IMG/VR virus record: IMGVR_UViG_3300045988_130501
Coordinates: 1-37,722 of that record
DNA length: 37,722 nucleotides
Direction: 5' to 3' (one strand)
Origin: a virus
This document shows, piece after piece, positions 10,704 through 37,722 of this stretch (its first letter is position 1; the number at the start of each line of letters is the position of its first letter). Made by a program: the position numbers and the translations under genes. Below the pieces are notes generated by a model. It ran no database searches, had not been told where the DNA came from, and was given only the letters and a program-made list of their open reading frames with translations.

Positions 10704-10779
10704 TGGAGGGCGAAGTGAGATTTGAACTCACGATATGGAAGTTGCAGTTCCACTTCTTTAGCCACTTGAATATTCGCCC
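10704..10779 (-). tRNA. tRNA-Cys (anticodon GCA), CCA encoded
   Basis: Folds by hand into a cloverleaf. Acceptor GGGCGAA/UUCGCCC, anticodon arm UGGAA-CUGCAAC-UUCCA, T arm GUGAG-UUCAAAU-CUCAC. The U73 discriminator and A13-A22/G15-G48 features are typical of bacterial tRNA-Cys. Confidence 0.9.
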
Positions 10780-11913: not shown

Positions 11914-11970
11914 ATATTTATCATTCCTTTCTAAAATTTTAAATAATTTTTTAATTATTTTTTGTGTTTT

Positions 11971-11984
11971 TGTGATTTCTCACA
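11971..11984. promoter_or_regulatory. Perfect palindrome TGTGA-N4-TCACA upstream of the BclA-C-like gene (candidate operator)
   Basis: tgtgatttctcaca, read directly. It lies in the 210-bp spacer between the terminators and the gene start. Confidence 0.35.
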
Positions 11985-12027
11985 TTTTTTTGGAAAAATA
12001 ACCAAATATTTCTCCATTATTTTTTTT

Positions 12028-12079
12028 AAAAAAGATAGGTTATTAGCCTATCTTCTATCATTTTCCTGTTATCAGGAAA
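12028..12079 (-). terminator. Tandem hairpins/terminator after the Cys/Gln-rich protein gene
   Basis: AAGATAGG-CTAATAA-CCTATCTT plus TTTT in the minus sense, and a second hairpin TTTCCTG-xxxx-CAGGAAA. Confidence 0.55.
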
Positions 12080-12123
12080 TTGGTTGCAATTCTCTTAAAA
12101 AGAGTTCCTAAATAGGCTTATGC

Positions 12124-12756
12124 TTAAATTATTGTAGTGTTTCCACAACCACATCCATTATATCCATAAGTTGATGGTACAAACGGACTACAGCTTGGGT
12201 AAGCAGGAGCTGGTCTTGGAATTATTGAATTAACGATTTGATTAGCCAAATTTGTGTTATTAAGTGCTTGATTAGTTGTAAATACTTGGTCACGTAATTG
12301 GTCAATTTTATCTTGTTGAATTAAATCAATTACTTTTTGAGTATTTGCTAAACTTTCTGCTCTTAAATCACAGCAACATTGTGCAATTTGGCTAGATAAT
12401 GTTTGAGTTTGTAAAGCATTATCATATCTGTTTTGTAAAACTTCTTTTTGAGTTTCACAAGCATTTTGACTACAATTAAATCTATTTTCTAGTACCTGTG
12501 TTCCTAAATCATATTTAGTTTCAAGAACATCTCTTTGAGTTTGACATCCAGTAGTAGAAACGTTTTGGTTAGTATTAAATACATCTCTTTCTAAGAAACG
12601 TGTATCTATATCAGTTTCTAATCCATTGTTTCTATTAAATCCATTTCCCCAAAAAGCAAAAAGTAAAATTACTATCCAAAACCATTCACTATCGCCATAT
12701 CCATTTCTTGAATAATCCATAGTAGGTACTATTCCAGCAGTTTGCATTGCTTCCAT
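12124..12756 (-). CDS. Membrane-anchored Gln/Asn/Cys-rich protein (210 aa from ATG 12756)
   Basis: AAGGAGGTG SD 6 nt before ATG 12756. TM segment WFWIVILLFAFWG. Internal repeat CQTQRDVLETKYD / CETQKEVLQNRYD. Nine Cys residues including CCC and a CGCG tail. Confidence 0.6.
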   Translation of the reverse strand: MEAMQTAGIVPTMDYSRNGYGDSEWFWIVILLFAFWGNGFNRNNGLETDIDTRFLERDVFNTNQNVSTTGCQTQRDVLETKYDLGTQVLENRFNCSQNACETQKEVLQNRYDNALQTQTLSSQIAQCCCDLRAESLANTQKVIDLIQQDKIDQLRDQVFTTNQALNNTNLANQIVNSIIPRPAPAYPSCSPFVPSTYGYNGCGCGNTTII

Positions 12757-12812
12757 ATATAACACCTCCTTTCAATAAATTGTTTATATAAACACTATTT
12801 TAGTGATTATAC

Positions 12813-13037
12813 CTATTTCATATTTTGAATTTGATTAAGAATATTATCAGGAACACCCATATTCTTTGCTTGTCCTAAAACTTGTTGCATTTGGGAATTA
12901 TCCATATTTCCCATCATCTGTCTCATTAACGCTTGGGGGTCAGTCCCACTATTCATTGCTTGATTTATTTGACTTGCCATTTGTGGATTTCTTGCTTGAA
13001 GTTGTCCCATTAGCATTTTCATTAACATATTGTTCAT
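12813..13037 (-). CDS. Met/Gln/Asn-rich small protein (74 aa)
   Basis: AAGGAG SD; low-complexity sequence MLMGQLQARNPQMASQ...MRQMMGNMDNSQMQQ. Confidence 0.55.
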   Translation of the reverse strand: MNNMLMKMLMGQLQARNPQMASQINQAMNSGTDPQALMRQMMGNMDNSQMQQVLGQAKNMGVPDNILNQIQNMK

Positions 13038-13404
13038 TTTCTTTCTCCTTTACTAGCATATTGATTTTAGCCTCTAAATCGGCTATTTTACGGTCTTTTT
13101 CATCTAACTCGATAATTCCCTTTAACTCGTATGTTTTCACTTCTCCTGAGGCGTTTTTGACCCATAATTGAGTGTATTCTTTATTTACAAATAATGTATC
13201 TGCAAAAACAAGCTCTTTTCGTACATCTTCTATTGAATTAACATATTTAATTCCGTTATTTTGATTTGGTGCAAGTTGGAAGTTTTGGGTGATGGGCGTT
13301 GCCTGTGGCTGATTTTGATTAGCCATTTGCATTTGTCTATCAATTCTATCTCTTAAACCTTGTAAATCTTGCATATACATTTGGTTGTTGTATGGATTAT
13401 ACAT
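12949..13404 (-). CDS. Gln/Asn-rich protein (151 aa); its 3' 89 nt overlap the next gene
   Basis: ORF track; N-terminal MYNPYNNQMYMQDLQ...QMANQNQPQ, C-terminal coiled coil. Confidence 0.55.
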   Translation of the reverse strand: MYNPYNNQMYMQDLQGLRDRIDRQMQMANQNQPQATPITQNFQLAPNQNNGIKYVNSIEDVRKELVFADTLFVNKEYTQLWVKNASGEVKTYELKGIIELDEKDRKIADLEAKINMLVKEKENEQYVNENANGTTSSKKSTNGKSNKSSNE

Positions 13405-13576
13405 TTACATCACTGCCCTCTAAATTAATATTTACAATTGTTTTTGGCTCTTTTTCTCTATTTTCAAAACCAAAATATAGTAAAAGTACAATAATTAAAA
13501 CCCAACCATCGTGTAGTTCATAATTTTCTTTGTTTTTTAAATCTTCAAATAATTTTTCATAATCTTTTTCTTTCAT
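13397..13576 (-). CDS. Small membrane protein (59 aa; below the track cutoff)
   Basis: ATG 13576 gives MKEKDYEKLFEDLKNKENYELHDGWVLIIVLLLYFGFENREKEPKTIVNINLEGSDVNV. The stop overlaps the next start. Confidence 0.4.
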   Translation of the reverse strand: MKEKDYEKLFEDLKNKENYELHDGWVLIIVLLLYFGFENREKEPKTIVNINLEGSDVNV

Positions 13577-13745: not shown

Positions 13746-13940
13746 TTATAATATTTTTTTTATTTTTTTCTTAAGTTTTTTAATCATAACATCAAGTGTT
13801 GGTTCTGATACGTTAAGTTCCATAGCCATTTTAGTTCTTGTATACCCTTTTATTTTCATTTCAAGTAGTTTTGCATATTCTTCATTAAGCATTGCCTCAT
13901 CTACTATTTTAAGATAATCTGTTTTTGTTAGCTCAAACAT
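13746..13940 (-). CDS. Small sigma-70 region-4/LuxR-type HTH protein
   Basis: LLEMKIKGYTRTKMAMELNVSEPTLDVMIKKLKKKI resembles a region-4 HTH. Confidence 0.45.
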   Translation of the reverse strand: MFELTKTDYLKIVDEAMLNEEYAKLLEMKIKGYTRTKMAMELNVSEPTLDVMIKKLKKKIKKIL

Positions 13941-14045
13941 TATTTATGCCCCATGAATTTGCCACAAGTCTTACATCTTCTTCGACCTTTGCTATCTTTT
14001 TTTGTTTTAGATTTACGATATTTAATTTTGTATGTTTGCTTAATC

Positions 14046-14315
14046 TTACCCATTAATATCGCCTTTATTTACAATATTTCCATCAACACTATCAATATCT
14101 GTAACTTCTTGAGTTGTTGTTTCAGTGCCTATGTCATTAAGAACATACACCAAGTATCCAATAGTAGCAAACCACATTCCTAAAATGACTAATATTGTTA
14201 TAAATTGTCTTTTATTTTGTTTCTTTTGGTCTTTTAAAAGTTCCATTGCAAAACTTTGTTCTTGAATTTCTTGTACTTCCTTTTTCATTTCTAACACTTC
14301 CTCTTTAAGCCCCAT
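14046..14315 (-). CDS. Coiled-coil plus TM membrane protein (XhlA-like architecture)
   Basis: N-terminal coiled coil, TM segment FITILVILGMWFATIGYLVYVL; 89 aa, next to the lysis genes. Confidence 0.4.
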   Translation of the reverse strand: MGLKEEVLEMKKEVQEIQEQSFAMELLKDQKKQNKRQFITILVILGMWFATIGYLVYVLNDIGTETTTQEVTDIDSVDGNIVNKGDING

Positions 14316-14316
14316 G

Positions 14317-14583
14317 TTATTCTCCTTTATTATGATATTCTTTTACATGATGTTTTAAAGCAATTTCAATTTTTTCATCTATTTCTTTGTCATAAGTATC
14401 TAATTTAGCCTCTATTTTTTCAAGCTTACCTAGTATAGTTTTTAATTGCATATCAATTTGTCCTTGTCTATAACTAGTATCTCCACTATCCTTAGTTGAT
14501 TTATCTTTTCTATTCAGTGCAAAACTACATACTGATATCACAGAGCCAAGTATTGATAGCGCTAGTGCTATTGTTAATCCCAT
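14317..14583 (-). CDS. N-terminal-TM plus coiled-coil membrane protein
   Basis: TM segment LTIALALSILGSVISVCSFAL, then a coiled coil. Confidence 0.45.
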   Translation of the reverse strand: MGLTIALALSILGSVISVCSFALNRKDKSTKDSGDTSYRQGQIDMQLKTILGKLEKIEAKLDTYDKEIDEKIEIALKHHVKEYHNKGE

Positions 14584-14596
14584 AATAATTTCCTTA

Positions 14597-15571
14597 TTAA
14601 TAAATTTTTAATACTTGTCCTGGATAGATTTTATTAGGATTACTAATACCATTGTCTTTGGCAATTTTTTGATATGTAGTTCCATATCTAGCAGCTATTC
14701 CTGATAATGTATCTCCCTTTTTAACAGTATAAGTTATTACATTTGATGAAGAAGTAGCATTACCATTGATAGTCAAAACTTGTCCTGGATAAATTTTATT
14801 AGGGTCTGAAATACCGTTTATTTTTGCTAACTCTTGGTAAGTAGTTCCATATCTACTAGCAATACCACTTAAAGTATCACCTTTTTTTACTGTATATGTA
14901 ATTGTTGTTTGAGCTGGCTTACTAGGCACTGTTGTTGGTGTTGGTTGGCTTGGTGTAACACTTGGACTGCCTCCTGCATATTTATCCCAAGCTGAACTAT
15001 CACCATAGAAATAATTCATATCAATATCTCCGCTATATCCATTTACTCTTCCCTTTGAAGTATATTGCCATAAACAATAGAATGGCCATTTACCACATGA
15101 AGGTTTAACTCCTGCTTCTCCTGTATTTTTACCATAGCTTGCAATCCATAATCCATAATCTCCAGCTACAACTGGACTCCAATCATAACTATTAGCTGGG
15201 CTTGCACTCATATATACGACTGGCTTAACTCCTGTTTTAGAATAAACTCTATCACAAAAATCTTTTACCCATGCAGGATTATTTAAATTACCACTTTCCC
15301 AATCTAAAACCAACATAGCTTCTTTAATATAACCTTGTATTTGACTAACAAACCAATCAGCTTCTGCTTCTGCACTGTTTCCTAAATCTGGTCTAGCAAA
15401 GTGATATACTCCTAATTTTTTGCCACAACTTTTAGCAGCTTGATAAAATTTATCGCAGCATGGGTCTGTATATCCGATTCCTTCTGTTGCTTTACAAATA
15501 ACAAAGTCTACTTCAGTAGCTCCTATATCAATTCCGTTTTGCCATTTACTAATATCAATTCCTTTTAACAT
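14597..15571 (-). CDS. Endolysin: GH25 muramidase with two C-terminal LysM domains
   Basis: N-terminal GIDISKWQN...[10 protein letters not shown]...GVYHFA (GH25). Two copies of [21 protein letters not shown]...[14 protein letters not shown] (LysM). Confidence 0.9.
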
Positions 15572-15572: not shown

Positions 15573-15770
15573 TTATTTCATCTCCTTTATAACTTTATTT
15601 CCTAATAAATATGTAGAAATTACTGCTATTACAACTGATATTGTGTTTGTAATTTTGTCAGCATTAACATTCCAAATTGGAGCAATTCCAATGATTAATG
15701 CGTTGACAATTGTAAGTATATTAAGCAAGTATTTTGATATGGTTTTTATTTTTTCTATTTTCTTCTTCAT
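15573..15770 (-). CDS. Holin (65 aa, two TM segments)
   Basis: Two hydrophobic helices and a charged C-terminus; lies immediately upstream of the endolysin. Confidence 0.7.
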
Positions 15771-26803: not shown

Positions 26804-26908
26804 TTTCTTCCCTCCATACGATTTTATACGAGTTTTTCATCTCTTTGAATTTTAGAAAAGTTTCACTTTTACGATGTGATAATCATGGTATATTATCTAC
26901 CTGAATAG

Positions 26909-26937
26909 AGTATACCATATTTACTAAAAAAAATCAA
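26909..26937 (-). promoter_or_regulatory. Candidate promoter for the scaffold/capsid/tail operon
   Basis: In the minus sense: TTGATT, 17 nt, TGgTATACT. It is overlapped by the inverted repeat GGTATA...TATACC (26887-26916). Confidence 0.4.
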
Positions 26938-27040
26938 ATACACAAAATTAAGAGTAATATAAGAATAATATAAATTATAATATAAATAATTAATAATAAT
27001 AAAATAATAATAAATAATATATATTTCTATTTTCATTTTC

Positions 27041-27079
27041 CATATGTTATTCATATGTTTTTCATATCTTTAACATATC
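27041..27079. repeat. Iteron array B: four CATAT(G/C) units phased at 11 bp
   Basis: Units start at 27041, 27052, 27063 and 27074. The 20-mer attttcattttccatatgtt (27029-27048) is identical to 6155-6174. Confidence 0.75.
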
Positions 27080-27194
27080 TTTTTTTTAATTCCTTGATTT
27101 TCCCTTGCTTTTCAACAAATCTTGATTTTTTAAATGGCTATTTTTTAATTTTATATTTTTAAGCAAAATTAAATTTTTTTTGCAAAAAAAACAC

Positions 27195-27218
27195 AAAAAA
27201 ACAACCATTTAAGGTTGC
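27195..27218 (-). terminator. Rho-independent terminator of the ORF-free unit
   Basis: In the minus sense: GCAACC-TTAAAT-GGTTGT followed by T7. Confidence 0.65.
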
Positions 27219-27780
27219 TTATAGTAAATATAAATAGGAATTGAACCTATTACAACTAGTTTTAAACGTTAGCACACCAGCTATATATTTACTTTGTATC
27301 TTTAATAGATACTATACTAATGATATAAAGGTTTCTAAATTAAACATCACGCTCAGTTTAATTCGTTGCGTTAGACCAAGTGTTTCAATTAACCTTTAAC
27401 TCGGTGTTATTGTTTATATATCATCAGTACACTACCTGTTAAAGGTAGTACCACTACTCTATATTATTCACTTAACACCAACGAAAGAAATTAAGTTTTC
27501 ATATATTTCGTGTAGACGACTTCGCTCGTTGTCTAGGGTATTAGTCGTTTTCCCTACCTCTAAAATAAGATTCAATACTTAACTTTGACATGTCAGCCAT
27601 TAATTCTTTACAAACACAGGATTTTATGTGTTTTCTTCACATTTCAGTGCCTTATAGACACCAACAGAACAAAATTTAAAGGCGTAAGAAAAGAAAAATA
27701 ATTAAAGCCAATAAATATTGCTATGTTGCTACCTATAAAGGTAACAAGCAAGGAAATTGTAAAAACACTTTTTCCACTAC
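27195..27780 (-). ncRNA. Candidate large structured ncRNA (~585 nt), family unassigned (ROOL/GOLLD-like?)
   Basis: Bounded by a near-consensus promoter and an intrinsic terminator. It has no plausible ORF, contains many hairpins and a 9-bp long-range helix, and is richer in G+C than its flanks. Confidence 0.55.
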
Positions 27781-27784
27781 ATTA

Positions 27785-27813
27785 ATTATATCACATTAAT
27801 TTAGTTTTTGCAA
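27785..27813 (-). promoter_or_regulatory. Sigma-A-type promoter of the ORF-free unit
   Basis: In the minus sense: TTGCAA, 17 nt, TGaTATAAT. It starts immediately after the stop codon of the minor capsid gene. Confidence 0.6.
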
Positions 27814-28893
27814 TTATTTATTGTATTTTGCAACCCAAGTTTTATCGTAATCAACTTCTAAACCTTTGCTTTTAGAATACTGCCTATATTTCATCTGACT
27901 ATTCCTTAGTTCTTTTTTCTTTTTGCCCAATATATCAGTATTATTTGTTCCTTTTAATGATAAGATTTCTTTCTTTTTACTTCTAACAGCTCTTGCATAA
28001 TAATTTTGTTGCTGTCGTTCATTATAATTTTTTGTTATTTCTTGAATAGTTCCATGTTCATTCCCAAATATAGTTTTTTGCTTTTTGTTGTCAAACTCAG
28101 GTCGCCAATCATAATTTACAATATGGTTGCAATTAAATTCTTCAGTAAGATATTCATACTTTTTAAATTCTTTTAAACTCATAATAACATCATCAATGGG
28201 ATGATGACTAGGACGACAGGTAGGACTATGCCCTATAACGACACAATTAGCCCCTATTTCATCGCCAACTTGCTTGGCAATATCATTAGCTGTTTGAGTT
28301 AAACTTGTCATTAGATTGCGTTTAACAGCCACTTCAAGAGATGTATTTCTTCCCACTTTATCTTTTAAAGTTATTCCTTTTTCAGCAAGTGCATTTATAG
28401 TGCTTTTCATTGCACTAGAATAATCAAAAGAACCACTTGCAACTTTAGTATATAAATCATCTAAAGCATTGATATAGGCTTTTTTGCTAAAAAATGCTAT
28501 TGATTTAGTCATATTCTTTAAATCTTTGTCGGTTCTTCTATAAATACTATCAACTAGAGTTTGCACTTCTTGACTTATTTCATAATCTAGTCCTTTAGCC
28601 TCGTAAGTGTCTTTATAGCCTTTCATTTGCTCGTTTTGTAATTCTTCAAATAATTGTAGTAATTGTTTCTTTCGCTCCCTAGAAAGCCCATTTGCCTTAT
28701 TTAAAGCCTCATTAAATACTTCTTTGCCACCTTGCCTAGCAAGAACTCTCATTTGTGCTTTAGTAAATGAAGATATATCCTCATTTTGTTGTAACTTCTT
28801 AATTATTGATGATGTTAAGTCCTGATTTAATTTGCTAAAAATTTCAACAACTTTGTTTTTTTCAAATTCACTCATTCTTTGTGGTGTTATCAT
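27814..28893 (-). CDS. Minor capsid protein 2 (head morphogenesis, SPP1 gp7/Mu F-like role)
   Basis: 359 aa. The central NLMTSLTQTANDIAKQVGDEIGANCVVIGHSPTCRPSHHPID pattern is typical of Phage_min_cap2-type proteins. Confidence 0.65.
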   Translation of the reverse strand: MITPQRMSEFEKNKVVEIFSKLNQDLTSSIIKKLQQNEDISSFTKAQMRVLARQGGKEVFNEALNKANGLSRERKKQLLQLFEELQNEQMKGYKDTYEAKGLDYEISQEVQTLVDSIYRRTDKDLKNMTKSIAFFSKKAYINALDDLYTKVASGSFDYSSAMKSTINALAEKGITLKDKVGRNTSLEVAVKRNLMTSLTQTANDIAKQVGDEIGANCVVIGHSPTCRPSHHPIDDVIMSLKEFKKYEYLTEEFNCNHIVNYDWRPEFDNKKQKTIFGNEHGTIQEITKNYNERQQQNYYARAVRSKKKEILSLKGTNNTDILGKKKKELRNSQMKYRQYSKSKGLEVDYDKTWVAKYNK

Positions 28894-28904: not shown

Positions 28905-28979
28905 TTATTTTTTTTCACTTATTGCAGTTATTATAATTAATGTTATACAAATTATTAATGTTATTATTATACTATTCAT
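28905..28979 (-). CDS. Micro-ORF 4: 24-aa hydrophobic peptide
   Basis: MNSIIITLIICITLIIITAISEKK; its ATG overlaps the upstream TAG (ATGAATAG). Confidence 0.4.
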   Translation of the reverse strand: MNSIIITLIICITLIIITAISEKK

Positions 28980-29094
28980 TTTCTTTCCTTTCTTTAATAA
29001 GCGTTATAATTACAACAACTATACTTATTAATAATATTGCCATAATAGGTAATATAAAATATTTTAAAATCATATACATTATTGCATTTATCAT
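28972..29094 (-). CDS. Micro-ORF 3: 40-aa single-TM peptide
   Basis: GGAGG SD; MINAIMYMILKYFILPIMAILLISIVVVIITLIKERKENE. Confidence 0.5.
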   Translation of the reverse strand: MINAIMYMILKYFILPIMAILLISIVVVIITLIKERKENE

Positions 29095-29171
29095 TCTTTA
29101 CCTCCTACAATAATTCCCATAAATAAAGCACCTGAAATAACTCCTACGATTAAGCCCAACAAGAAGTTCAT
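29091..29171 (-). CDS. Micro-ORF 2: 26-aa Gly-rich TM peptide
   Basis: MNFLLGLIVGVISGALFMGIIVGGKE; ATGA overlaps on both sides. Confidence 0.45.
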   Translation of the reverse strand: MNFLLGLIVGVISGALFMGIIVGGKE

Positions 29172-29278
29172 TTTTTATCACGACCTATTATTAATAAAAT
29201 TATATATAATATTGCTACACCTAATCCTATAAAAGCTCCTATAACTTCTATTTTTGCTCTTAGTTCTAACCAAAACAT
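29168..29278 (-). CDS. Micro-ORF 1: 36-aa single-TM peptide
   Basis: AGGAG SD; MFWLELRAKIEVIGAFIGLGVAILYIILLIIGRDKK. Confidence 0.5.
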   Translation of the reverse strand: MFWLELRAKIEVIGAFIGLGVAILYIILLIIGRDKK

Positions 29279-29291
29279 TATTTATCATCTC

Positions 29292-29573
29292 CTAACTTGT
29301 TTGTTGATAATAATCTTCTACACTTCCACTTAAATCATTAAATATAATCATTATTTTTGTTTCCCATTTTGAATTACTAGGAATAAAATTTTGTGATAAT
29401 ATATTTGCTAATTCATCCCAACTAATATATTGTAATTCTGGTGCTTTATAGCAATTGTTTTTCTTTACATTTTCAATTTGTTCTATAATGTTTGTTATTC
29501 TTCCTTCATCAAAATTACATTCTTCAACAATAACTTTAATTATTTTATTTGCTATTTTTTGAAAGTTTCTCAT
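29292..29573 (-). CDS. Hypothetical protein (93 aa)
   Basis: ORF track. Confidence 0.5.
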   Translation of the reverse strand: MRNFQKIANKIIKVIVEECNFDEGRITNIIEQIENVKKNNCYKAPELQYISWDELANILSQNFIPSNSKWETKIMIIFNDLSGSVEDYYQQTS

Positions 29574-29585
29574 CTTTATCTCCTA

Positions 29586-29951
29586 TTATTTCTTTATGAT
29601 ATTGTTTTCCCAATATCTAACTTTAGCATTTAATATTCTTTTTGCTTCTTTTCTTCTTTTGAAGTTTAAAAATCCATCTAAGCATCCATTAACTACTTCA
29701 CATCTAGAACCTTTATTATTTTCGATGTCAAAATCTTCAAAACAATCCCATATAATATAATGATTATTTTTTAAACATCTTATTAAAGACTTTATAGATG
29801 GCTTATCATAGTAAGTAACATAATAGAAATGATGATATTCTATTTGATAAATTCTATCTCCAACCAATTTATATATATAATGTCTTTTTAATAATTTTCT
29901 ATTAAGATAATTCCTAATTTTACTTTTACTATAATCTTTTCTATTTATCAT
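29586..29951 (-). CDS. Hypothetical protein (121 aa)
   Basis: ORF track. Confidence 0.5.
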   Translation of the reverse strand: MINRKDYSKSKIRNYLNRKLLKRHYIYKLVGDRIYQIEYHHFYYVTYYDKPSIKSLIRCLKNNHYIIWDCFEDFDIENNKGSRCEVVNGCLDGFLNFKRRKEAKRILNAKVRYWENNIIKK

Positions 29952-30394
29952 TTAATTTCTCCTATTATTTCTTTGTATTTTTGTAAAATACCACTACAAG
30001 CGCCTGCTAATCGTGGGTCTGCTCCATCAAATTGTTTTTCTTTTTCTTCTAAATACTTTATAAACTCTTTTTGTTGAGTAATTAACTTTGGTATATCTAC
30101 TATCGATATTCCACAACAAGTTGTTAAATGGTCTTGTTTTAATATTTTATCTTTTGTTAATTCTTGTGATAACACTTTATTTATTGCTTTATATTCTTCA
30201 AGTTGTTTTTTTAATTCTTGATTTTCTTTTATTAATAAATCAATACATCTAGCATTTTCACCATAACAATTACCTAAAAAATAAAGCTCACCATTTTCTA
30301 TTTTTACAACAGTCATACCAATTCCATCTTCACCGTTTGTGTCTACACCTATTGTGTATTTATCAATGTCGTAAGTATATTCTTTATCATCCAT
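29948..30394 (-). CDS. Hypothetical coiled-coil protein (148 aa)
   Basis: ORF track. Confidence 0.5.
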   Translation of the reverse strand: MDDKEYTYDIDKYTIGVDTNGEDGIGMTVVKIENGELYFLGNCYGENARCIDLLIKENQELKKQLEEYKAINKVLSQELTKDKILKQDHLTTCCGISIVDIPKLITQQKEFIKYLEEKEKQFDGADPRLAGACSGILQKYKEIIGEIK

Positions 30395-30586
30395 TTACTC
30401 ATCACTCTCTACTTTCTTTAATAAATCATTCAATTTAAAATAATATTCCAGTACATTTTTTAGTTCATCTCTATTTAATTTTATATTGCTTTGACTATGA
30501 AACATTACCTGATTATCTTTACGTATCACTACGTGATTATTGCTTGCTTGTGATATTTCGTAACCCTTATAATTAATCTTTAACAT
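30395..30586 (-). CDS. Hypothetical protein (63 aa from ATG 30586)
   Basis: The track ORF starts at GTG 30595. ATG 30586 has an AAGGTG SD. Confidence 0.5.
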   Translation of the reverse strand: MLKINYKGYEISQASNNHVVIRKDNQVMFHSQSNIKLNRDELKNVLEYYFKLNDLLKKVESDE

Positions 30587-30725
30587 TACTATCACCTTCT
30601 AATTTTTTTAGCATTTCATTATATTTTTCAAATAAATCTTCCAAATACATACCATAGTTATTAAATGCTGTCTTTTTTGTATAATAAAATTCTATTAATT
30701 TAAAGCATACTTCTTCTTTATTCAT
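30573..30725 (-). CDS. Hypothetical protein (50 aa; below the track cutoff)
   Basis: MNKEEVCFKLIEFYYTKKTAFNNYGMYLEDLFEKYNEMLKKLEGDSNVKD fills an otherwise empty gap. Confidence 0.4.
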   Translation of the reverse strand: MNKEEVCFKLIEFYYTKKTAFNNYGMYLEDLFEKYNEMLKKLEGDSNVKD

Positions 30726-30849
30726 TACTATCACTTCCTTGTTCTAAACTTTTTCTTATTTCGTAATTAGTTTTCAATTCGTCAATTAGCATACATACAA
30801 AGGAAATATCTATTATAATTAACAATATACAGCCACTTATTTCTATCAT
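30718..30849 (-). CDS. Small membrane protein (43 aa; below the track cutoff)
   Basis: ATGA overlap with the upstream gene; MIEISGCILLIIIDISFVCMLIDELKTNYEIRKSLEQGSDSNE. Confidence 0.4.
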   Translation of the reverse strand: MIEISGCILLIIIDISFVCMLIDELKTNYEIRKSLEQGSDSNE

Positions 30850-31172
30850 TGATTATCCCTTCCTTGCTCTAGTTCTTCTAACTTTTCTAAACATTGAGAG
30901 AATATTAATCTTTCTTTTGTTGCTTTTTCAAAATTACAAAATGGACTAGATAATCTATTATCACAAACTTCAATTCTTTCATTAAAATATTCTTTTAACT
31001 TATCCCAATTATCCTTTAGTTGTTTGTTCTCTTGCTGTAATTGCTTAATATATTTGTATAATATTTTTTGGTCTTTATATGTAAATTCACTTGAATAATC
31101 ATCATGTGGTTCTAAACTTGTCGTTTCTAGATAATTCAATATCATATCTAAATCAGTAATTTCTATATTCAT
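30846..31172 (-). CDS. Hypothetical coiled-coil protein (108 aa)
   Basis: ORF track; GGAGGTG SD. Confidence 0.5.
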   Translation of the reverse strand: MNIEITDLDMILNYLETTSLEPHDDYSSEFTYKDQKILYKYIKQLQQENKQLKDNWDKLKEYFNERIEVCDNRLSSPFCNFEKATKERLIFSQCLEKLEELEQGRDNQ

Positions 31173-31183
31173 TCTGACACCTC

Positions 31184-31348
31184 CTAAATTTCAAACCAAT
31201 TGCCTTGACTATCTTGTAAACATTTAGCCCCACAATATTTGCATATTCCATAATTACTGCAACCATCATTACCTAATATTTCACAGTTATGCCATTTCAA
31301 ATATTTATCACACCAAAATGCTATTTTTAAAATCAAATTTTTAATCAT
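31184..31348 (-). CDS. Cys-rich small protein (54 aa; below the track cutoff)
   Basis: ATGA overlap with the upstream gene; MIKNLILKIAFWCDKYLKWHNCEILGNDGCSNYGICKYCGAKCLQDSQGNWFEI has 6 Cys. Confidence 0.4.
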   Translation of the reverse strand: MIKNLILKIAFWCDKYLKWHNCEILGNDGCSNYGICKYCGAKCLQDSQGNWFEI

Positions 31349-31614
31349 TCTGATACCTCTTCTAATAAATCTTCAACAATTTCTAAATAAGATAATAAAC
31401 AACTTTTTGATAACATATTGTCATCTCGATTATTATTTAATATATTTCTTGTTTCTTTTGTTTCATTGAGTATTCTATCAATTACTTCTTTTTGCTTTTT
31501 GACTTGTTGTTCTAAAATTAAATTTTCACCACATAATTCCATAATTTGTAATGCTAATTCAGTTGTTGGTTTATTTGACAAATCATCGGCTATATCTAAC
31601 AGTTCTTTATTCAT
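31345..31614 (-). CDS. Hypothetical coiled-coil protein (89 aa), paralogous segment KKQKEVID
   Basis: ORF track. Confidence 0.5.
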   Translation of the reverse strand: MNKELLDIADDLSNKPTTELALQIMELCGENLILEQQVKKQKEVIDRILNETKETRNILNNNRDDNMLSKSCLLSYLEIVEDLLEEVSE

Positions 31615-31619
31615 TATTC

Positions 31620-31868
31620 TTATTTCTCCTTTAATATGTCTAATAACTTTTCATAATTGAATTTATAATCATTTAAGCAATATGTCTTTTTACCATCTAA
31701 AATACTTGATACAATTAAATTTTTATTCACATATTCTCTTGCTTTATCAATTACTTCTTTTTGTTTTTTACATTGTTGTTGCAAATTATTCAACCATCGG
31801 TGAGTATATCTTGATTGATAATATTTTCCATCTTTAACATTATAAAAATATATTATTTCTTCTTCCAT
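31620..31868 (-). CDS. Hypothetical protein (82 aa from ATG 31868), paralogous segment KKQKEVID
   Basis: GAGGAG SD before ATG 31868. The longer track ORF would overlap the upstream gene by 50 nt. Confidence 0.5.
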   Translation of the reverse strand: MEEEIIYFYNVKDGKYYQSRYTHRWLNNLQQQCKKQKEVIDKAREYVNKNLIVSSILDGKKTYCLNDYKFNYEKLLDILKEK

Positions 31869-31872
31869 ATTC

Positions 31873-32193
31873 TTATTTCTCCTCTTTAAAAATTTCTTTA
31901 ATCGGTACAACCTTTCCATCATAAATATATTTGTATTCTTTTACTTGTTTTATTGTTCCATCTTCTAACTCACACACAGGACTACCTTGCCCACCACTGC
32001 GTACTTCTTCAAATTTATATGAACATTCTTTAGCAGCGCCTTTATTATTATCTAAATCAATATATTCATAATGATATTGTTTCTTTGGAAAACAACTTAT
32101 TATTAACCCTAAAATTATTAAACATATAAAAGCTAAGAAAATTGAACCTAGCCATTTTAATATAGTTATATACCATTTTTCTTCATCCGTCAT
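31873..32193 (-). CDS. Membrane-anchored protein (106 aa)
   Basis: N-terminal TM segment ILKWLGSIFLAFICLIILGLIISCF. Confidence 0.5.
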   Translation of the reverse strand: MTDEEKWYITILKWLGSIFLAFICLIILGLIISCFPKKQYHYEYIDLDNNKGAAKECSYKFEEVRSGGQGSPVCELEDGTIKQVKEYKYIYDGKVVPIKEIFKEEK

Positions 32194-32195
32194 TC

Positions 32196-32450
32196 TTATT
32201 CCTCATTTCTTTTATCTAATTCATATTGTAATTCTGCTATTTTTTTATCTACTAAATATGAATTATCATCATAATTATAAAAAATTTCGCCATTATCATA
32301 ATTATAAAATTCATATTCTTCGCCATAAAAATCATGGTGTTTTTTTAAAAATTTAATTGTATTTTCTATATGTGAAGTTTCCATATCACTTATTTTAATT
32401 TTTTTATGGTCTTTAGTTTCCCACCAATCTTTTTTATAAGGATATTTCAT
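32196..32450 (-). CDS. Hypothetical protein (84 aa)
   Basis: ORF track. Confidence 0.5.
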   Translation of the reverse strand: MKYPYKKDWWETKDHKKIKISDMETSHIENTIKFLKKHHDFYGEEYEFYNYDNGEIFYNYDDNSYLVDKKIAELQYELDKRNEE

Positions 32451-32452
32451 GA

Positions 32453-32590
32453 TTATTTCTCCTTTTTCATTTTTTCTTCAATTGCCTTTAATATAAAATC
32501 TTTAATAGTCATATTTCTTTCATGTGCTTTTGTTTCAATCTCTTTTAAATATTCCTCTGTAAATTGTAAAGGATATGTTTTTATTTTCAT
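32453..32590 (-). CDS. Ribbon-helix-helix (CopG/Arc-like) protein, 45 aa
   Basis: GGAGGTG SD then ATG 32590: MKIKTYPLQFTEEYLKEIETKAHERNMTIKDFILKAIEEKMKKEK. Confidence 0.55.
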   Translation of the reverse strand: MKIKTYPLQFTEEYLKEIETKAHERNMTIKDFILKAIEEKMKKEK

Positions 32591-32813: not shown

Positions 32814-33003
32814 CACATAATTTTTTTTCAAGTTCTTTAAAATTGTATTCTTTTGGCTCTTTTAAACTTGAAACATAAACTCCTGTTCCTATTACAACAA
32901 GTACATTTTTCTTTTTAGAACTATTATATTTTATTTCTAAGTTCGCTATTTCATAATCATTTGCCTTTTTTAAATAGTAAACATTATTCGACTGGTATAT
33001 CAT
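32803..33003 (-). CDS. Hypothetical protein (66 aa from ATG 33003)
   Basis: GAGG SD before ATG 33003; overlaps the end of the 567-aa gene by 20 nt. Confidence 0.45.
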   Translation of the reverse strand: MIYQSNNVYYLKKANDYEIANLEIKYNSSKKKNVLVVIGTGVYVSSLKEPKEYNFKELEKKLCEKE

Positions 33004-34687
33004 TATTAACCTCGCTTTCACTTGCTTTTGCTGTTTCCAATGCTGTTAATCTGTTATTTATGTCTATAAGTTCCTGTTTTAATGCCTTTTCATTTATTTG
33101 TAAGTTTTGAACCGTTTTAGTAAAGTTTCTATAATATTTTGCATTAATTTGTGGTAGTAAATCACTATCAGTAAATATGTTTGTAATCTCATCATAAGAT
33201 AAAGGCATATCTACTATTCCTAAATCGACTTCGTATGGTTTTTCTAACGCATAATATACTTCTACAGGATGTGTTGATAGCCAATTGGTTAGCCCATTGC
33301 TTGAAACTTCTTCAAGTCTTGATTGTAAAATCTTTATTTGCAATAGATTGTTATTCGAACCACCAGTAGAAATATTTTCTGAATTACTTGTCCAACCATT
33401 AGGCTTATAAATAAATTTATCAGAAACCATTGTTGAACTTGACTTGATAGCAGTTCCTATATTAAATTGTGCAACAAATTTATCATCATTAATCACTCTT
33501 GAATAGCTAATTGGTTGAGTTCCATTTAAAACAGTCTTACTAATAATCTTGTTTAGTATTAAATGATGTTTTCCGTCCTCTTTATAAACTACCTTTAATG
33601 TATCTTTATAAGTGCCATCTATTTTGGCTACAAATTCTCCTTCTGGAAGGTTGGCAGTTATGACACTTTCAAGATAATTTTCTTCTGTTTCATCTTTTCC
33701 ATTATTACTAGTCACACTCAAACTATCCGTTATTGTTTTAATTTCTTGTGGATAATCAGGTGAAGGTGTTGCTTGTTGTTTGCAAACACCCTCAATACTT
33801 AATTCTTGTAATTCTGCCCAAGCACTATCTTGAACATTGATAAAACTGTCGCTTGCTGTTCCTGTTTCAAGAATATCATTTTTAACTCGTTCTAATTCGT
33901 TTCTTGTTTTTTTAGCCCTGCTGTCTACTTCATCTAGTTGTTCTTTTGTAACTTCGCCATTCGTAACATCAAAAGTTGTTTGAGTTCCGTCAGTATAATG
34001 AATAGCATAAGTATCTACGTTTTCTACTGTTGATACTTTTTCGATGTTTTTGATTCCGTTTCCTGTATCACCTTTTAATTCAACAAATTGATAAGCCGTT
34101 TCTTTAGAATTTTTAACACCTAGTTTAGTGCCATCCCATTTGTAATTAAAATCAGCACCGTCAAAGTCGCCATTGTCAACTTGTGCTTTTAAGTTGCTTA
34201 TGTATTCTTCCCTTGCATTTTCATTTTGTTGTCTAGTGGTTTCTTGATTTTGTCTGATTTCTTCATCTTTAGTAACTTGTTCATTTAATTCAGTTACTTT
34301 TTGAATTAATTCATCTAAAATTACAACTTTAGGCTCGTCTGGCTGGATATCATCATCACAAATAATAGCATTTTCAATATAAATTTTCAAAATTGATGTT
34401 CTAGCCACAATTTCATCTTCATTTTCAATTTTAAAAAAAGCAATAGACATTTCTAATTCATTATATTGTGTCATATCTCTTGTTAAAGTCAATGTGTTAT
34501 CTGTTATGTTGTCAAAGCTTTTTGCAAAAGTCTTGTCATTAGCTTTAAAACAAGCTTTTCTACCAAAGTCTTTGTATTCTTCAGGTATTTCAAATTGTAA
34601 TTTTTCAATTTTATTTTCTTCTAAGTATCCAACAACCAAACATGATACATTTAATTTCCTGCCATCTTCAATTTTAATTATCTTCAT
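32984..34687 (-). CDS. BppU-N-like / coiled-coil fibre or receptor-binding-type structural protein (567 aa)
   Basis: The N-terminal ~110 aa resemble the Ig-like BppU_N/tail-fibre N-domain pattern (..SILKIYIENAI). They are followed by a Gln/Glu-rich coiled coil, a globular region and a C-terminal coiled coil. GGAGG SD; overlaps the portal stop by 14 nt. Confidence 0.4.
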   Translation of the reverse strand: MKIIKIEDGRKLNVSCLVVGYLEENKIEKLQFEIPEEYKDFGRKACFKANDKTFAKSFDNITDNTLTLTRDMTQYNELEMSIAFFKIENEDEIVARTSILKIYIENAIICDDDIQPDEPKVVILDELIQKVTELNEQVTKDEEIRQNQETTRQQNENAREEYISNLKAQVDNGDFDGADFNYKWDGTKLGVKNSKETAYQFVELKGDTGNGIKNIEKVSTVENVDTYAIHYTDGTQTTFDVTNGEVTKEQLDEVDSRAKKTRNELERVKNDILETGTASDSFINVQDSAWAELQELSIEGVCKQQATPSPDYPQEIKTITDSLSVTSNNGKDETEENYLESVITANLPEGEFVAKIDGTYKDTLKVVYKEDGKHHLILNKIISKTVLNGTQPISYSRVINDDKFVAQFNIGTAIKSSSTMVSDKFIYKPNGWTSNSENISTGGSNNNLLQIKILQSRLEEVSSNGLTNWLSTHPVEVYYALEKPYEVDLGIVDMPLSYDEITNIFTDSDLLPQINAKYYRNFTKTVQNLQINEKALKQELIDINNRLTALETAKASESEVNNDIPVE

Positions 34688-36137
34688 TTCCTACCTCCAA
34701 TTTTGAACTTGTTAAACTATCTTCTTCATTGATTAAAGCAAGTTCTTTTTTTGCATCTTCTTCACTCATTCCATAGAATTTCATTAAGTAACCTACTTTG
34801 CTTCTTAGACCCATAGACATTTCGTTTCTATATTCTTCTTTTTGGTCTTCTTCGCTATTTAAGAAACCGTCTTTGTCAACTAAATTAATTGTATCGTTTT
34901 CATCTACATTTTCATTAAAGAATAATCTTCCAATCATTAAAATACTTCTAACAATTCCAACGGTATATTTATTTAAAGCCGAACGGTGTTTTTTAGCATT
35001 TCCAACAAGGTCTTTATTATCTAATATAGCTTGTGTTGCTGTAACAACTCCACCCTGCTCAAACTTATAATAAGCCTTCCCTAGCCCACTTTTGAAAGCA
35101 AGTATATTAAGTGCTAAGTTTATCCCGTTTTCATTCTCAGTTTCCCTTAAATCAGGGTTATATTCGTGTACTAGTGTTTCAGCATTGACATCAACTTCGT
35201 CTCCAACTATTTGGAATTGTTGCTTAGTAATATCATCTGGATATATTGGAACTTCTTGAACTACAACTTCGCCTGTTTCTTCATCTGTATATGTTTGCGT
35301 ATAATATTTCGTTAATTTCTTATTGTAAAATACTTTCTTACCACCTAAATAAAAGTCTTTCATAAAGTTGTTATAGACAATATCTACACCTTGCAATTGG
35401 TCTATTGCGTTTGCATAAACACTAATACCAAGCCCATTGTTTTCTTTAATGTTATTTACTATTCTAGGCATTAATAAATTGAATAAAGGAACACTTGAAC
35501 CTGTTTCATATTCTTCAACAATACCCTCGTTTTTAACCTCGTTGCCTTGTTCATCAATGTATTTATTGTGTATATGGTATCCATCTCTTTTTAATTCGTG
35601 AATTTCAATGTAAAAAGCATTTTTGTTATTAATAATACTTTTTGAAACAAAAGCAACATCAGTTATTACACCATCAATTATTTTCAAAGGTATTATTTGA
35701 CTAGCATTTACACTAACTAAATTCAAAGTAGTATTTTCATCAGCAATTATTTTTTTATTAACTATTTTAGCATTTTTAATTCTTACAATAGTTCCACAAG
35801 TACCACTCCAAAAAGCGGTTTCAATATTATCCGGTATTTTATCATTAAATTCTAGTTTTTCAAGCCACTTGTCAATAAAAACTTGATTTTGTTTGTTTTT
35901 ACAAACTATCCCATCTCTTTCAGTATAAAGAATACTGCTCCAGTCCTCACATAGCCTTTTAGCCATGCCAAGTTTAAACAATTCTCTTTTATCACCATTT
36001 TGGTCATGGTATTCATGAAATTTTTTTACATAATTTTCATACCATTCTTTCCATAATTCAACATAACCATAATAGCTTGTACTAGGATTGTAACCTAGCG
36101 TTCCTAAATATTTAATTACAACATTATTACTATCCAT
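34674..36137 (-). CDS. Portal protein (A118-type)
   Basis: 487 aa immediately after terL; AGGAGG SD. N-terminal region VELWKEWYENYVKKFHEYHD... Confidence 0.8.
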   Translation of the reverse strand: MDSNNVVIKYLGTLGYNPSTSYYGYVELWKEWYENYVKKFHEYHDQNGDKRELFKLGMAKRLCEDWSSILYTERDGIVCKNKQNQVFIDKWLEKLEFNDKIPDNIETAFWSGTCGTIVRIKNAKIVNKKIIADENTTLNLVSVNASQIIPLKIIDGVITDVAFVSKSIINNKNAFYIEIHELKRDGYHIHNKYIDEQGNEVKNEGIVEEYETGSSVPLFNLLMPRIVNNIKENNGLGISVYANAIDQLQGVDIVYNNFMKDFYLGGKKVFYNKKLTKYYTQTYTDEETGEVVVQEVPIYPDDITKQQFQIVGDEVDVNAETLVHEYNPDLRETENENGINLALNILAFKSGLGKAYYKFEQGGVVTATQAILDNKDLVGNAKKHRSALNKYTVGIVRSILMIGRLFFNENVDENDTINLVDKDGFLNSEEDQKEEYRNEMSMGLRSKVGYLMKFYGMSEEDAKKELALINEEDSLTSSKLEVGNEDN

Positions 36138-36138: not shown

Positions 36139-37455
36139 TTATCCTCCTAAATTTGTTTTTAATAATATTTTATACCAATTTTCAACACTGTAATTGTAAG
36201 CGTCCAAAGTATCTACATCAAAAGTCCCGTCATCAACGTATCGGTCATCATCAGCATTTGGGTCTTGTACTGCCTCTTGTAATGAAGTAACAATCCCCTC
36301 TGTGTTATTTTCAACAAACTTAATCTTACTTAACATCATAAGCATATTTATAGCATAAATACGACTTGAAATAGGTGTCTTAATACTGTCTTTAATTGGT
36401 ATGTGTAAATGTAACTCGTCAAGTGCCTCTTGTAAAGCACTTATAAGTATCTGCTCGGCACAATCAGCCCATATATAGTCTATGTGTCCATACTTCTCAA
36501 TAATAAACAAAATATGCTCTTTAAATGCCTTTTTAAGTTGTTTCAATTTTTTGTGAATATCATCTATAATTTCAGTCCTATCGCTTCGCAAAACTGTTAT
36601 TCCTGTATAACTTCGTGGAATAGAGCTTGTTACAAATGAGTGAGCCGAGCCATTTCCACCAAAGTCAACTCCAGTAGAAATAATACCGCCACTACAACTA
36701 GGCACTAAAAAGTCTTTTTCTCGTTCTATTATTGGTGTGAATAAGAAACTCTCGTTTGCTACTCTTTTACCTAGAATATCTCGTTTGTACCAAATAGACG
36801 TCTTGTCATAAGTGCTTAACCTTTGTTTTAACTTTTCATCACTAATAGATAAATTATCAAATATATTAAACTCTTCATAATTAAAGCCATAATTAGGGTT
36901 TTCTCTCTGCTGTTCTTCGTGAAAAGCCAAGTATTCAGTATAATACCAATGCTTAGGACTTTTAGGGTTTAAATCGTGAAATATCTTTCTATCATCACTT
37001 GATAAAGTTCTATCTTCAACTTCTTTTAAAAATGATGGGTCACACTCGTTTGCTTCGGTAACATAAGCCATTCCGTAAGTATTACCTTTGATAGTCTTGT
37101 AAGAGTTAGCCTTGCCACCACCTGCAACTAATAAAATTTTTTCTTTTCCATCAGCGGTATTTATATAAATAGCGTCTCTGTTCTTATATTTTCCCTCTCG
37201 ACATCGTCCAGCAAAATAATTAAGTATCCCATATCCATCACAATCAATTATATTAAGCCTTGCCGACGTGCTATCATATCCAGCAATCAAAAATAATTTG
37301 TTTGGGTGGTTTTCTAGTGCTATGCAAAAGGCTAGCCCATTTGTAACGTTCTTGCCACCACGTTTGCCACCATGAGCAACATTAAACCAACTTGTTTGGC
37401 ATTTTCTAATATAATCAGCCTGTTTTTCACAAAGAGGTGCTAATTCATTGAACAT
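36139..37455 (-). CDS. terL: Terminase large subunit (PBSX-type)
   Basis: WFNVAHGGKRGGKNV (P-loop-like) ... AYVTEANEC ... C-terminal nuclease region. ATG 37455 has a GGAG SD; the track start 37464 is GTG. Confidence 0.85.
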   Translation of the reverse strand: MFNELAPLCEKQADYIRKCQTSWFNVAHGGKRGGKNVTNGLAFCIALENHPNKLFLIAGYDSTSARLNIIDCDGYGILNYFAGRCREGKYKNRDAIYINTADGKEKILLVAGGGKANSYKTIKGNTYGMAYVTEANECDPSFLKEVEDRTLSSDDRKIFHDLNPKSPKHWYYTEYLAFHEEQQRENPNYGFNYEEFNIFDNLSISDEKLKQRLSTYDKTSIWYKRDILGKRVANESFLFTPIIEREKDFLVPSCSGGIISTGVDFGGNGSAHSFVTSSIPRSYTGITVLRSDRTEIIDDIHKKLKQLKKAFKEHILFIIEKYGHIDYIWADCAEQILISALQEALDELHLHIPIKDSIKTPISSRIYAINMLMMLSKIKFVENNTEGIVTSLQEAVQDPNADDDRYVDDGTFDVDTLDAYNYSVENWYKILLKTNLGG

Positions 37456-37722
37456 TATCTTCACTCCTGTTTGGTTTAGGGTTGTTTAATAAATCAGCTA
37501 TGTTAGATACGTTTTTGTTTATTTTTTGTAAATCATCAGCAGTTTTAACAACTTCAACCTTTTCTCTCCATTGTTCTTTTCTCCTGTTCTTTAACCAGAA
37601 TATCATTGCTGCTGTATCTCCTGGAACGTGAACATCTTTTTTTAAAGTGTGAACATCTCCATATTTGTCAAGTTTTTCTTCTTCAATTGTTATTGTGTAC
37701 CCTAATGCTCTTTTTAGCAAGG
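37445..37722 (-). CDS. terS: Terminase small subunit, C-terminal part (continues from bases 297..1 across the circular junction)
   Basis: ALLKRALGYTITIEEEKLDKYGDVHTLKKDVHVPGDTAAMIFWLKNRRKEQWREK, in frame with the 5' part. Confidence 0.85.
   Translation of the reverse strand, partial: LLKRALGYTITIEEEKLDKYGDVHTLKKDVHVPGDTAAMIFWLKNRRKEQWREKVEVVKTADDLQKINKNVSNIADLLNNPKPNRSEDNVQ
37634..37722. repeat. Second copy of the 89-bp terminal overlap
   Basis: Identical to 1-89. Confidence 0.95.

Follow-up and report, generated by a model that had tools for sequence, protein, structure and literature searches.

We analyzed a stretch of 37,722 nucleotides of viral DNA (IMG/VR virus record IMGVR_UViG_3300045988_130501, hereafter the window) in which four very small open reading frames (micro-ORFs) tile 374 bp on the minus strand, from position 28905 to 29278. 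In the reading that we favor, with a probability of about 0.6, they are real, modular genes for membrane-inserted micro-proteins that act as accessory host-interaction factors. Judging from comparisons with other phage sequences, the locus is a stack of three or four modules that are mobile independently of one another (ORF1, ORF2 and a fixed ORF3-ORF4 pair). The same comparisons indicate that the modules recombine exactly at gene borders, in a hypervariable slot just upstream of the head-morphogenesis gene.

All genes of this genome lie on the minus strand. The micro-ORFs encode peptides of 36 amino acids (aa) for ORF1 (29168-29278; MFWLELRAKIEVIGAFIGLGVAILYIILLIIGRDKK), 26 aa for ORF2 (29091-29171; MNFLLGLIVGVISGALFMGIIVGGKE), 40 aa for ORF3 (28972-29094; MINAIMYMILKYFILPIMAILLISIVVVIITLIKERKENE) and 24 aa for ORF4 (28905-28979; MNSIIITLIICITLIIITAISEKK). 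Consecutive stop and start codons overlap, as ATGA between ORF1 and ORF2 and between ORF2 and ORF3, and as ATGAATAG between ORF3 and ORF4. An AGGAG Shine-Dalgarno (SD) sequence (29289-29293) stands 10 nt before ORF1 and overlaps the TAG stop codon of the 93-aa ORF that flanks the locus upstream (29292-29573). ORF3 is preceded at 6 nt by a GGAGG SD (29101-29105). The SD of ORF4 (AAGGA) is weaker, and ORF2, which lacks one of its own, would depend on coupling through the overlap of its start with the ORF1 stop. The downstream flank is the minor-capsid or head-morphogenesis gene (27814-28893; Phage_min_cap2, PF06152, E=6e-39). A preliminary description of the locus, made from the sequence alone, had reported four minus-strand ORFs of 36, 26, 40 and 24 codons, and these match the sequence and the six-frame ORF list exactly; the peptide sequences, overlaps and AGGAG and GGAGG sites that it quoted are likewise as given there. 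Its assignment of a single hydrophobic helix and a charged C-terminus to each peptide also agrees with the hydropathy profiles, in which every peptide has one strongly hydrophobic stretch, long enough to span a membrane (Kyte-Doolittle maxima over 17 residues of 2.5-3.4). All four tails are charged (GRDKK in ORF1, GGKE in ORF2, KERKENE in ORF3 and SEKK in ORF4).

Hydrophobic ORFs can arise by chance in AT-rich DNA, a caveat raised in the preliminary description, and none of 5000 dinucleotide-preserving shuffles of the 374 nt reproduced the arrangement. ATG-initiated ORFs of at least 20 aa covered on average a fraction of 0.13 of the shuffled sequences, compared with 1.0 in the observed sequence. 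Coverage of at least 0.90 was reached in 0 of 5000 shuffles, as was the presence of three or more transmembrane (TM)-like ORFs. Across the window, a scan of ORF-free gaps found a single TM-like micro-ORF besides the four (30718-30849), which makes the run of four a local exception. The claim that such a run is unusual in this position thus holds for the run; the position itself is explained by the accessory slot, which carries 0, 1 or 4 micro-ORFs in different relatives.

We scored codon usage against the phage's own genes, in which in-frame windows score 0.40±0.16 and off-frame windows -0.55±0.25. In the proposed frames the scores are 0.42 for ORF1, 0.38 for ORF2, 0.25 for ORF3 and 0.20 for ORF4, and the alternative frames of the same DNA score at most 0. 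These values equal or exceed those of TM segments in the phage's holin and membrane proteins (-0.04 to 0.20). Antisense coding was considered for two ORFs of 50 and 57 aa and was rejected, as their frame scores are poor and the ORFs are not conserved. Starts, stops and overlaps are kept in every homologue. Loss of the frames in homologous regions had been named in advance as an outcome that would contradict coding; all homologues keep the frames, and every indel is a multiple of 3. For instance, ORF1 variants with a +3 indel encode 37 aa in frame. Ratios of nonsynonymous to synonymous differences (pN/pS) are 0.14-0.86 for ORF1, 0.31 for ORF2 (4 synonymous and 4 nonsynonymous differences) and 0.13-0.65 for ORF4. 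The Nei-Gojobori (NG86) estimate of dN/dS is under-powered here, did not discriminate the frame of ORF1 and found ORF3 without constraint. We therefore turned to conservation across contexts, module borders, the phase of indels, frame scores and a test of TM compatibility. In that test, among 28 distinct changes within the ORF1 and ORF3 TM cores, 2 bring in a charged or strongly polar residue, set against an expected fraction of ~0.3 under neutrality, or ~0.25 after discounting stops (P ~0.02, our own binomial estimate).

Relatives were drawn from IMG/VR, metagenomes, ENA and Logan. The minor-capsid protein served as the anchor for locating relatives at the slot, and the short peptides were searched via a concatenated query, degenerate DNA patterns and alignments. 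A blastn search of 2.6 kb against curated phage genomes gave no match, and pattern scans of IMG/VR for ORF2 and ORF3 found no contig beyond one already known.

ORF1 belongs to an undescribed, well-defined micro-protein family that is new here. A profile search found 29 close variants, and an exhaustive search with hidden Markov models returned 32 clusters at 50% identity, all of 33-65 aa. The consensus of a 38-sequence alignment, MxW[LI]ELWAK[IM][EQ]VI[GS]xxIG, is followed by a hydrophobic TM helix of variable sequence and then by a tail that is basic. W3 is the same in all sequences, M1, E5, L6 and A8 are conserved in at least 90% of the sequences, and G/S14 and G18 form a conserved small-xxx-small pair. 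The copy in the window scores within the family profile and deviates from the consensus only at R7 for W7, a change common to the 36-aa subfamily. AlphaFold2 (AF2) models ORF1 as a single continuous helix over residues 2-35 (predicted local distance difference test, pLDDT, 93).

Divergent members of the family (44-53% identity) hold the same slot in two relatives (L002 and L037). The ORF1 block is also 92-98% identical at the nucleotide level in otherwise unrelated contigs (L016-L018, L026, L056-59 and L063), where ORF1 is located among early or accessory genes. This homology block of ~130 nt extends from TAGGAG[A/G]TGATAAATAATG to ...GATAAAAAATGA, with unrelated flanks on both sides. The TAGGAG[A/G]TGATAAATAATG sequence recurs in 8 unrelated contexts that share no homology further upstream, and the terminal ATGA of ORF1 is the start of seven different downstream genes. 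In a different phage type, with an SPP1-type portal and a Mu-F head protein, an ORF1 homologue is followed by two genes, with terminase genes next; the first encodes a lipoprotein of 85 aa (DUF6440, lipobox LTGC) and the second a TM micro-protein of 37 aa (MLNLLIFSAELLGIIVCWILTILVVFAFIGAIVKIDD). This cluster (L056 5188-5577, also in L057-L059) is one of envelope-directed accessory genes.

ORF2 encodes a glycine-zipper TM peptide (G6xxxG10xxxG14 and G19xxxG23G24). A protein query combining ORF2 and ORF4 retrieved two homologues of ORF2, P0072 (29 aa) and P0073 (36 aa, L067), and all six zipper glycines are retained in them. P0073 lies on a 46-kb contig near methylase and SNF2 genes, and ORF1, ORF3 and ORF4 are absent around it. 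In this contig the ORF2 homology block starts a few nucleotides before the ATG. The GGAGG codons for Gly23-Gly24, which form the SD of ORF3 in the window, are again the SD of the next gene.

ORF3 is represented by 12 variants of 85-93% identity, each of 40 aa. Near the N-terminus I5 and residues 7-16 (YMILKYFILP) are invariant, unlike positions 3, 4 and 6. A mixed-charge tail follows a TM helix that differs among the variants. Most variants have an S24-xxx-G28 pair, which in the window copy reads V28 at the second position. AF2 models a single continuous helix over residues 2-39 (pLDDT 94.5). ORF4 directly follows ORF3 in every locus, with the ATGAATAG overlap, and the pair is known from two different phage backbones. 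In the second phage type (L029-31 and L064) it lies after early genes and before a 111-aa gene, with HNH, holin_Dp1 and endolysin genes near. In both types the homology block runs from the ORF3 ATG to TAAGGAG. The first 21 residues of ORF4 are nearly invariant across 8 coding-sequence variants (T18S only), its tail carries a net positive or neutral-basic charge in all of them (EKK, KKK, HKKEK, NKKDK or NKKEK), and its two indels (+6 nt and -18 nt) are in frame.

At the slot itself, all four ORFs are present in close relatives (L001, L027/28/33, L034, L060-62 and L065/66), whose upstream genes differ. A single ORF1-type gene occupies it in L002 (40 aa) and in L037 (35 aa, 44% identical to ORF1), and micro-ORFs are absent from it in L003/L036, L032, L035, L038, L039 and L044/45. 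In the relatives without micro-ORFs, the preceding gene abuts the minor-capsid SD and is coupled to the minor-capsid gene directly. Because relatives hold 0, 1 or 4 micro-ORFs, we regard the slot as hypervariable. In L065 the cassette DNA is 97% identical to that of the window and the adjoining minor-capsid gene 80.6%; the cassette has therefore moved between diverged backbones. Other phages also carry each module without the others, complete with its start and stop codons. The preliminary description had spoken of a cassette of membrane micro-proteins. The coding of single-helix peptides is borne out, and the notion of one cassette is not, since the modules are found separately elsewhere.

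One further gene family recurs around these modules and is absent from the window. It is an ORFan family of ~110-130 aa (MKLEV..YVRT...NIIDLIEVGDYVNG...TKEQFEQMAYKVGE) whose members adjoin ORF1-type or ORF3/4 genes or precede the minor-capsid gene directly (L016 1850-2212, L002 3499-3861, L037 417-773, L029 2602-2997, L030 2614-2997, L003 118-483, L039 295-657 and L063 2878-3258).

The modules also hold the translation signals of their neighbors. The ORF1 module comes with its own SD, and its terminal AAAAAATGA provides the start of the following gene. The Gly-Gly codons of ORF2 (GGAGG) double as the SD of the gene that follows, and the stop of ORF4 lies within a TAAGGAG that acts as the SD of the next gene. 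Any stacked module would thus be translated in series with the operon. Taking the sequence evidence together, all four ORFs are very probably translated genes. We are nearly certain of this for ORF1, and strongly confident for ORF3; ORF2 follows very closely, and ORF4 is likely to be translated, with slightly lower confidence.

Several observations weigh against the view that the micro-ORFs are functional membrane genes acting on the host. Purifying selection is weak compared with that on the adjoining minor-capsid gene (pN/pS 0.09-0.17), and none is detectable for ORF3, whose pN/pS is 1.33 when pooled and ranges from ~0.5 to >1 between pairs. Few substitutions were available for counting. Because the DNA of most cassette copies is >93% identical, frame conservation among them is weakly informative, and the coding argument rests on the cross-context copies and the ORF1 family. 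An 18-aa ORF4 resulting from a 6-codon deletion occurs in L060 and L062, and its hydrophobic stretch is short of a normal TM span. Lastly, topology, membrane insertion and any target are matters that we infer, and the functional proposal draws on architecture and one contextual association.

We consider it very likely that the peptides are inserted in a membrane. Small phage proteins typically insert by a YidC-type route, and the positive-inside rule predicts on which side charged tails come to lie. Since the tails are charged (consistently basic in the ORF1 family), this rule would place the C-terminus inside and the N-terminus outside. The peptides would thus lie in the cytoplasmic membrane of the host, their basic C-terminal tail in the cytoplasm and a short N-terminus exposed. 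They may act via helix-helix packing, through G/S14-G18 in ORF1, GxxxGxxxG in ORF2 and S24-xxx-G28 in ORF3. The N-termini of ORF1 (its first ~14 residues) and ORF3 are conserved while the membrane core drifts, which suggests a specific juxtamembrane contact on the N-terminal side; these motifs would be the specificity determinants. As accessory factors, the peptides could bind or perturb host membrane proteins, for instance in excluding competing phages or in blocking or modulating a membrane-bound host system. That the role is such exclusion or modulation of a host membrane complex, rather than membrane permeabilization, is a tentative proposal with somewhat less than an even chance of being right. 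Our best guess is that the peptides are neither virion parts nor lysis machinery.

A bolder version of this proposal, which we think improbable, is that the ORF1 family is a widespread phage plug-in whose outward-facing motif docks onto a conserved Firmicute membrane machine (for instance a DNA-entry channel, or a defense or sensor protein in the membrane), the stack being a set of counter-measures against multiple targets. If true, it would define a new class of modular anti-competitor or anti-defense micro-genes that spread between unrelated phages as cassettes of ~100-200 nt with their own coupling signals.

The main rival, which we hold to be unlikely, is that the peptides permeabilize the membrane, as type-I-toxin-like or holin/antiholin-like depolarizers that serve lysis timing, host energy shutdown, or addiction or abortive modules. 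Their architecture fits the general description of type I toxins, which are <60 aa, with one TM domain and a charged C-terminus, and often prophage-borne (PMC6563280); the peptides here have 24-40 aa, one hydrophobic helix and a charged C-terminus. With the toxins of Firmicute prophages and related families that we compared (C. difficile phiCD630-1/2, B. subtilis TxpA/BsrG/YonT, Fst/Ldr and Hok/Gef) they have in common that they are small and phage-borne, with a hydrophobic helix at the N-terminus and a C-terminus that is charged and often Lys-rich. Unlike those toxins, the micro-ORFs are embedded in a long co-directional operon and translationally coupled rather than forming a stand-alone, tightly repressed unit, and they have no significant sequence match to them. 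Nor do the signals for an antisense antitoxin RNA support the type I arrangement that the preliminary description had listed among the options. Plus-strand promoter-like matches are weak (9/12) and not in excess (49 in total vs 42.9±6.6 in shuffles), although consensus scans of this kind cannot exclude an RNA. There is no plus-strand terminator within 3 kb that would define such an RNA, the nearest terminator-like site being 3 kb off at 32321, and no Rfam match was found. ORF4 does weakly match the TM part of Hok/Gef (PF01848, 16.1 bits, profile positions 3-19 of 42; NF007279, 15.4 bits), but these scores fall below the gathering threshold (GA) of 22 and the cutoff of 73, respectively, and reflect the hydrophobic helix only, right after which ORF4 ends. 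We therefore rejected membership in Hok/Gef.

Permeabilization draws further support from ORF2, whose canonical GxxxGxxxG zipper is a motif needed for the toxicity of TelE-type membrane-damaging effectors (PMC10434224), and from the resemblance that ORF3 and ORF4 together would have to a split two-TM class II holin. The peptides have hydrophobic helices and charged C-termini in common with holins and with zipper toxins such as TelE and CdzC/D (PMC5380434), but the zipper toxins are domains of much larger secreted proteins. The TM helices here are almost purely aliphatic and lack a polar, pore-lining face. No holin family profile in Pfam or PHROGs matched any of the four peptides at E<0.1. Unlike holins, the micro-ORFs are not adjacent to the endolysin gene, which lies 13 kb away in a complete holin-endolysin cassette with a canonical holin and two further TM proteins. 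We thus rejected the micro-ORFs as the main holin, and the holin/antiholin timing role mentioned in the preliminary description is disfavored because that cassette is complete without them.

If the act of translation were what matters, the peptides would be irrelevant by-products of relay ORFs that set downstream expression. Every module does embed the start or SD of the following gene, and ORF1 is ATGA-coupled to seven downstream genes. A pure relay would not need the motif, hydrophobic helix and basic tail that the ORF1 family keeps across 32 clusters; ORF2 retains its six glycines, with synonymous and nonsynonymous differences at 4:4, and in relatives without micro-ORFs the minor-capsid gene is coupled directly to the preceding gene. 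We consider this explanation very unlikely. We find it still harder to believe that the ORFs are non-functional, either as fortuitous hydrophobic ORFs in an AT-rich spacer or as the frameshifted wreck, or programmed-frameshift form, of a larger membrane gene. AT-rich DNA readily gives Ile/Leu/Phe-rich ORFs, the two antisense ORFs (50 and 57 aa) are open too, ORF3 lacks signs of purifying selection, ORF4 tolerates truncation, and the successive frame shifts (-1, -1, +1) resemble those of a broken gene. Against this stand the failure of all 5000 shuffles to reproduce the arrangement and the frame scores, which favor the four frames over the alternative frames and the antisense ORFs. Moreover, a longer intact homologue was not found in the databases, where the relatives of ORF1, ORF2 and ORF3 all have 29-65 aa, and every piece is found alone in other phages with its own start and stop.

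Searches of Pfam, PHROGs, NCBIfam, PADLOC, PDB and Rfam with the single sequences and the 38-member ORF1 alignment gave nothing significant. Among known systems, the peptides are most readily set beside the uncharacterized small TM families of gut microbes and phages. About 4,500 small-protein families have been described from the gut, 28% of them predicted to be transmembrane (Sberro et al., bioRxiv 10.1101/494179), and surveys of phage small proteins have been reviewed (PMC11323111). Like these, the micro-ORF products have 24-40 aa, one TM helix and no known domain, and are fast-evolving, mobile and missed by annotation. Unlike them, four are stacked and serially coupled here, and the modules move as a single ORF or ORF pair between unrelated phages. 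Small TM proteins are thus a known and abundant class; what is new is the ORF1 family, the stacking of three to four modules and the neighbor-coupling signals.

Regulatory small membrane proteins such as MgrB, SafA, UgtS, AcrZ, CydX and KdpF (reviewed in PMC12648545) offer a parallel for the mechanism that we infer, as each is a single TM helix (29-49 aa) packing on a larger membrane protein. Those proteins are chromosomal and encoded beside, or co-regulated with, their target, whereas the micro-ORFs are carried by a phage as cargo, have no target gene nearby and share no sequence similarity with them. A comparison with superinfection exclusion (Sie) is also instructive. T4 Imm and Sp, lactococcal Sie2009 and the streptococcal Ltp lipoprotein are membrane accessory proteins by which phages exclude superinfection. 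They resemble the micro-ORF products in being membrane-anchored and encoded in variable accessory regions, and a phage lipoprotein gene adjoins one of the ORF1 homologues. To our knowledge, the known Sie proteins have 80-170 aa and extramembrane domains. The micro-ORF products, at 24-40 aa, differ from them and show no homology, and none of the four matched the superinfection-exclusion families Sie2009, Ltp, Imm, Sp or SieB in Pfam and PHROGs.

Class IIb two-peptide bacteriocins were also considered and rejected. These have a double-glycine leader, a dedicated ABC transporter with C39 peptidase, and an immunity gene. The micro-ORF peptides start at the helix without such a leader, the window has no transporter-sized gene for them, and the GxxxG motifs are the sole common feature.

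The genome as a whole (~38 kb, ~27% GC) is that of a siphophage-like virus of the human gut, whose host is probably a Clostridium. Its relatives come from human-gut metagenomes, and the sole match in a genome collection is a metagenome-assembled genome of a Clostridium sp., which lacks the micro-ORFs. The large terminase (36139-37464) and portal (34674-36137; phrog_533) genes are followed, ahead of the accessory region, by a gene for a 567-aa protein (32984-34687). This protein matches nothing in Pfam, and its C-terminal third weakly matches a tail-fiber PHROG (phrog_6782, E=2.7e-12); this is an odd site for a fiber-like gene. Next, in a stretch from 32776 to 32616, come in this order a promoter-like site that is the best in the region (TTGACT-17-TATAAT with TG, 11/12), an ORF of 31 aa and a bidirectional terminator-like hairpin. 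A 45-aa RHH/MobA-like ORF (32453-32590) then opens the accessory region. This hyperplastic region of small ORFan genes (29292-32590, ~3.5 kb) extends from the portal and 567-aa genes to the micro-ORFs, and its content varies among close relatives. It includes two predicted membrane proteins, of 43 aa (30718-30849) and of 106 aa (31873-32193), the latter with a sub-threshold SieB match (13.7 bits vs 26). A terminator scan found none between the accessory genes and the micro-ORFs or between the latter and the head genes.

After the micro-ORFs, the gene order is minor capsid, scaffold (PF06810), major capsid, tail genes, lysis and replication. The lysis cassette comprises a 65-aa holin with two TM segments (15573-15770; phrog_263, E=1.9e-5), a GH25/LysM endolysin (14597-15571) and, directly after it, two extra TM or coiled-coil proteins of 88 and 89 aa (14046-14583) with weak matches to holin PHROGs. 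A very basic CxxC micro-ORF of 37 aa (13940-14053) follows these two. Between the lysis and early genes lies a cluster of low-complexity proteins (11479-13404), some rich in Q, N and M (74 and 151 aa) and one with a Cys-rich C-terminus (213 aa); the 144-aa and 213-aa members weakly match PHROGs of unknown function. Other small predicted membrane proteins have 65, 64 and 59 aa (9217-9414, 10124-10318 and 13397-13576, respectively). The early region carries a tRNA-Cys (GCA) (10704-10779), and the replication genes include a DnaB-like helicase and a Sak4-like protein. Outside the assigned modules no integrase-sized gene is left in the genome, which makes prophage maintenance an unlikely role for the micro-ORFs.

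Close to the micro-ORFs, the 1010-nt ORF-free stretch between the minor-capsid and scaffold genes (26804-27813, core 27195-27780) looks like an independent structured RNA. It carries a promoter-like site (TTGCAA-17-TATAAT with TG, an extended -10; 27813-27785). The 586-nt body has a minimum free energy of -147 kcal/mol, compared with -116±5.8 kcal/mol in shuffles (z=-5.4). Near 27245 it contains a tRNA T-arm-like sequence (GGTTCAATTCC), with a weak match to tRNA-Sec (19.5 bits), and near 27200 a stem and T-run that resemble a terminator. Relatives keep the promoter and the 5' and 3' parts of this candidate, and its middle is variable. No Rfam family reached its threshold in the stretch. The scaffold gene, which belongs to the GP20 family (PF06810), has just upstream of it a sub-threshold match to the GP20-b RNA motif (26817-26885; RF03003, 21.6 bits vs 36.2, E=0.054), a context that agrees with the known association of that motif.

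Genes of 24-40 codons fall at or below the limit of gene callers. For instance, in public assemblies ORF1 and ORF3 are called as genes and ORF2 and ORF4 are left as gaps. Such apparent gaps can hold conserved, horizontally exchanged genes. Should the peptides prove inert, the locus would remain useful for benchmarking the prediction of small ORFs in AT-rich phage DNA. The ORF1 family, with its sharply conserved 14-residue motif, is a concrete and testable one, and if a target is found, these peptides may become minimal tools to probe or inhibit membrane proteins of gut Clostridia. More broadly, the locus indicates that phage mosaicism extends to the scale of single genes of 80-200 nt that bring their own translational coupling signals.

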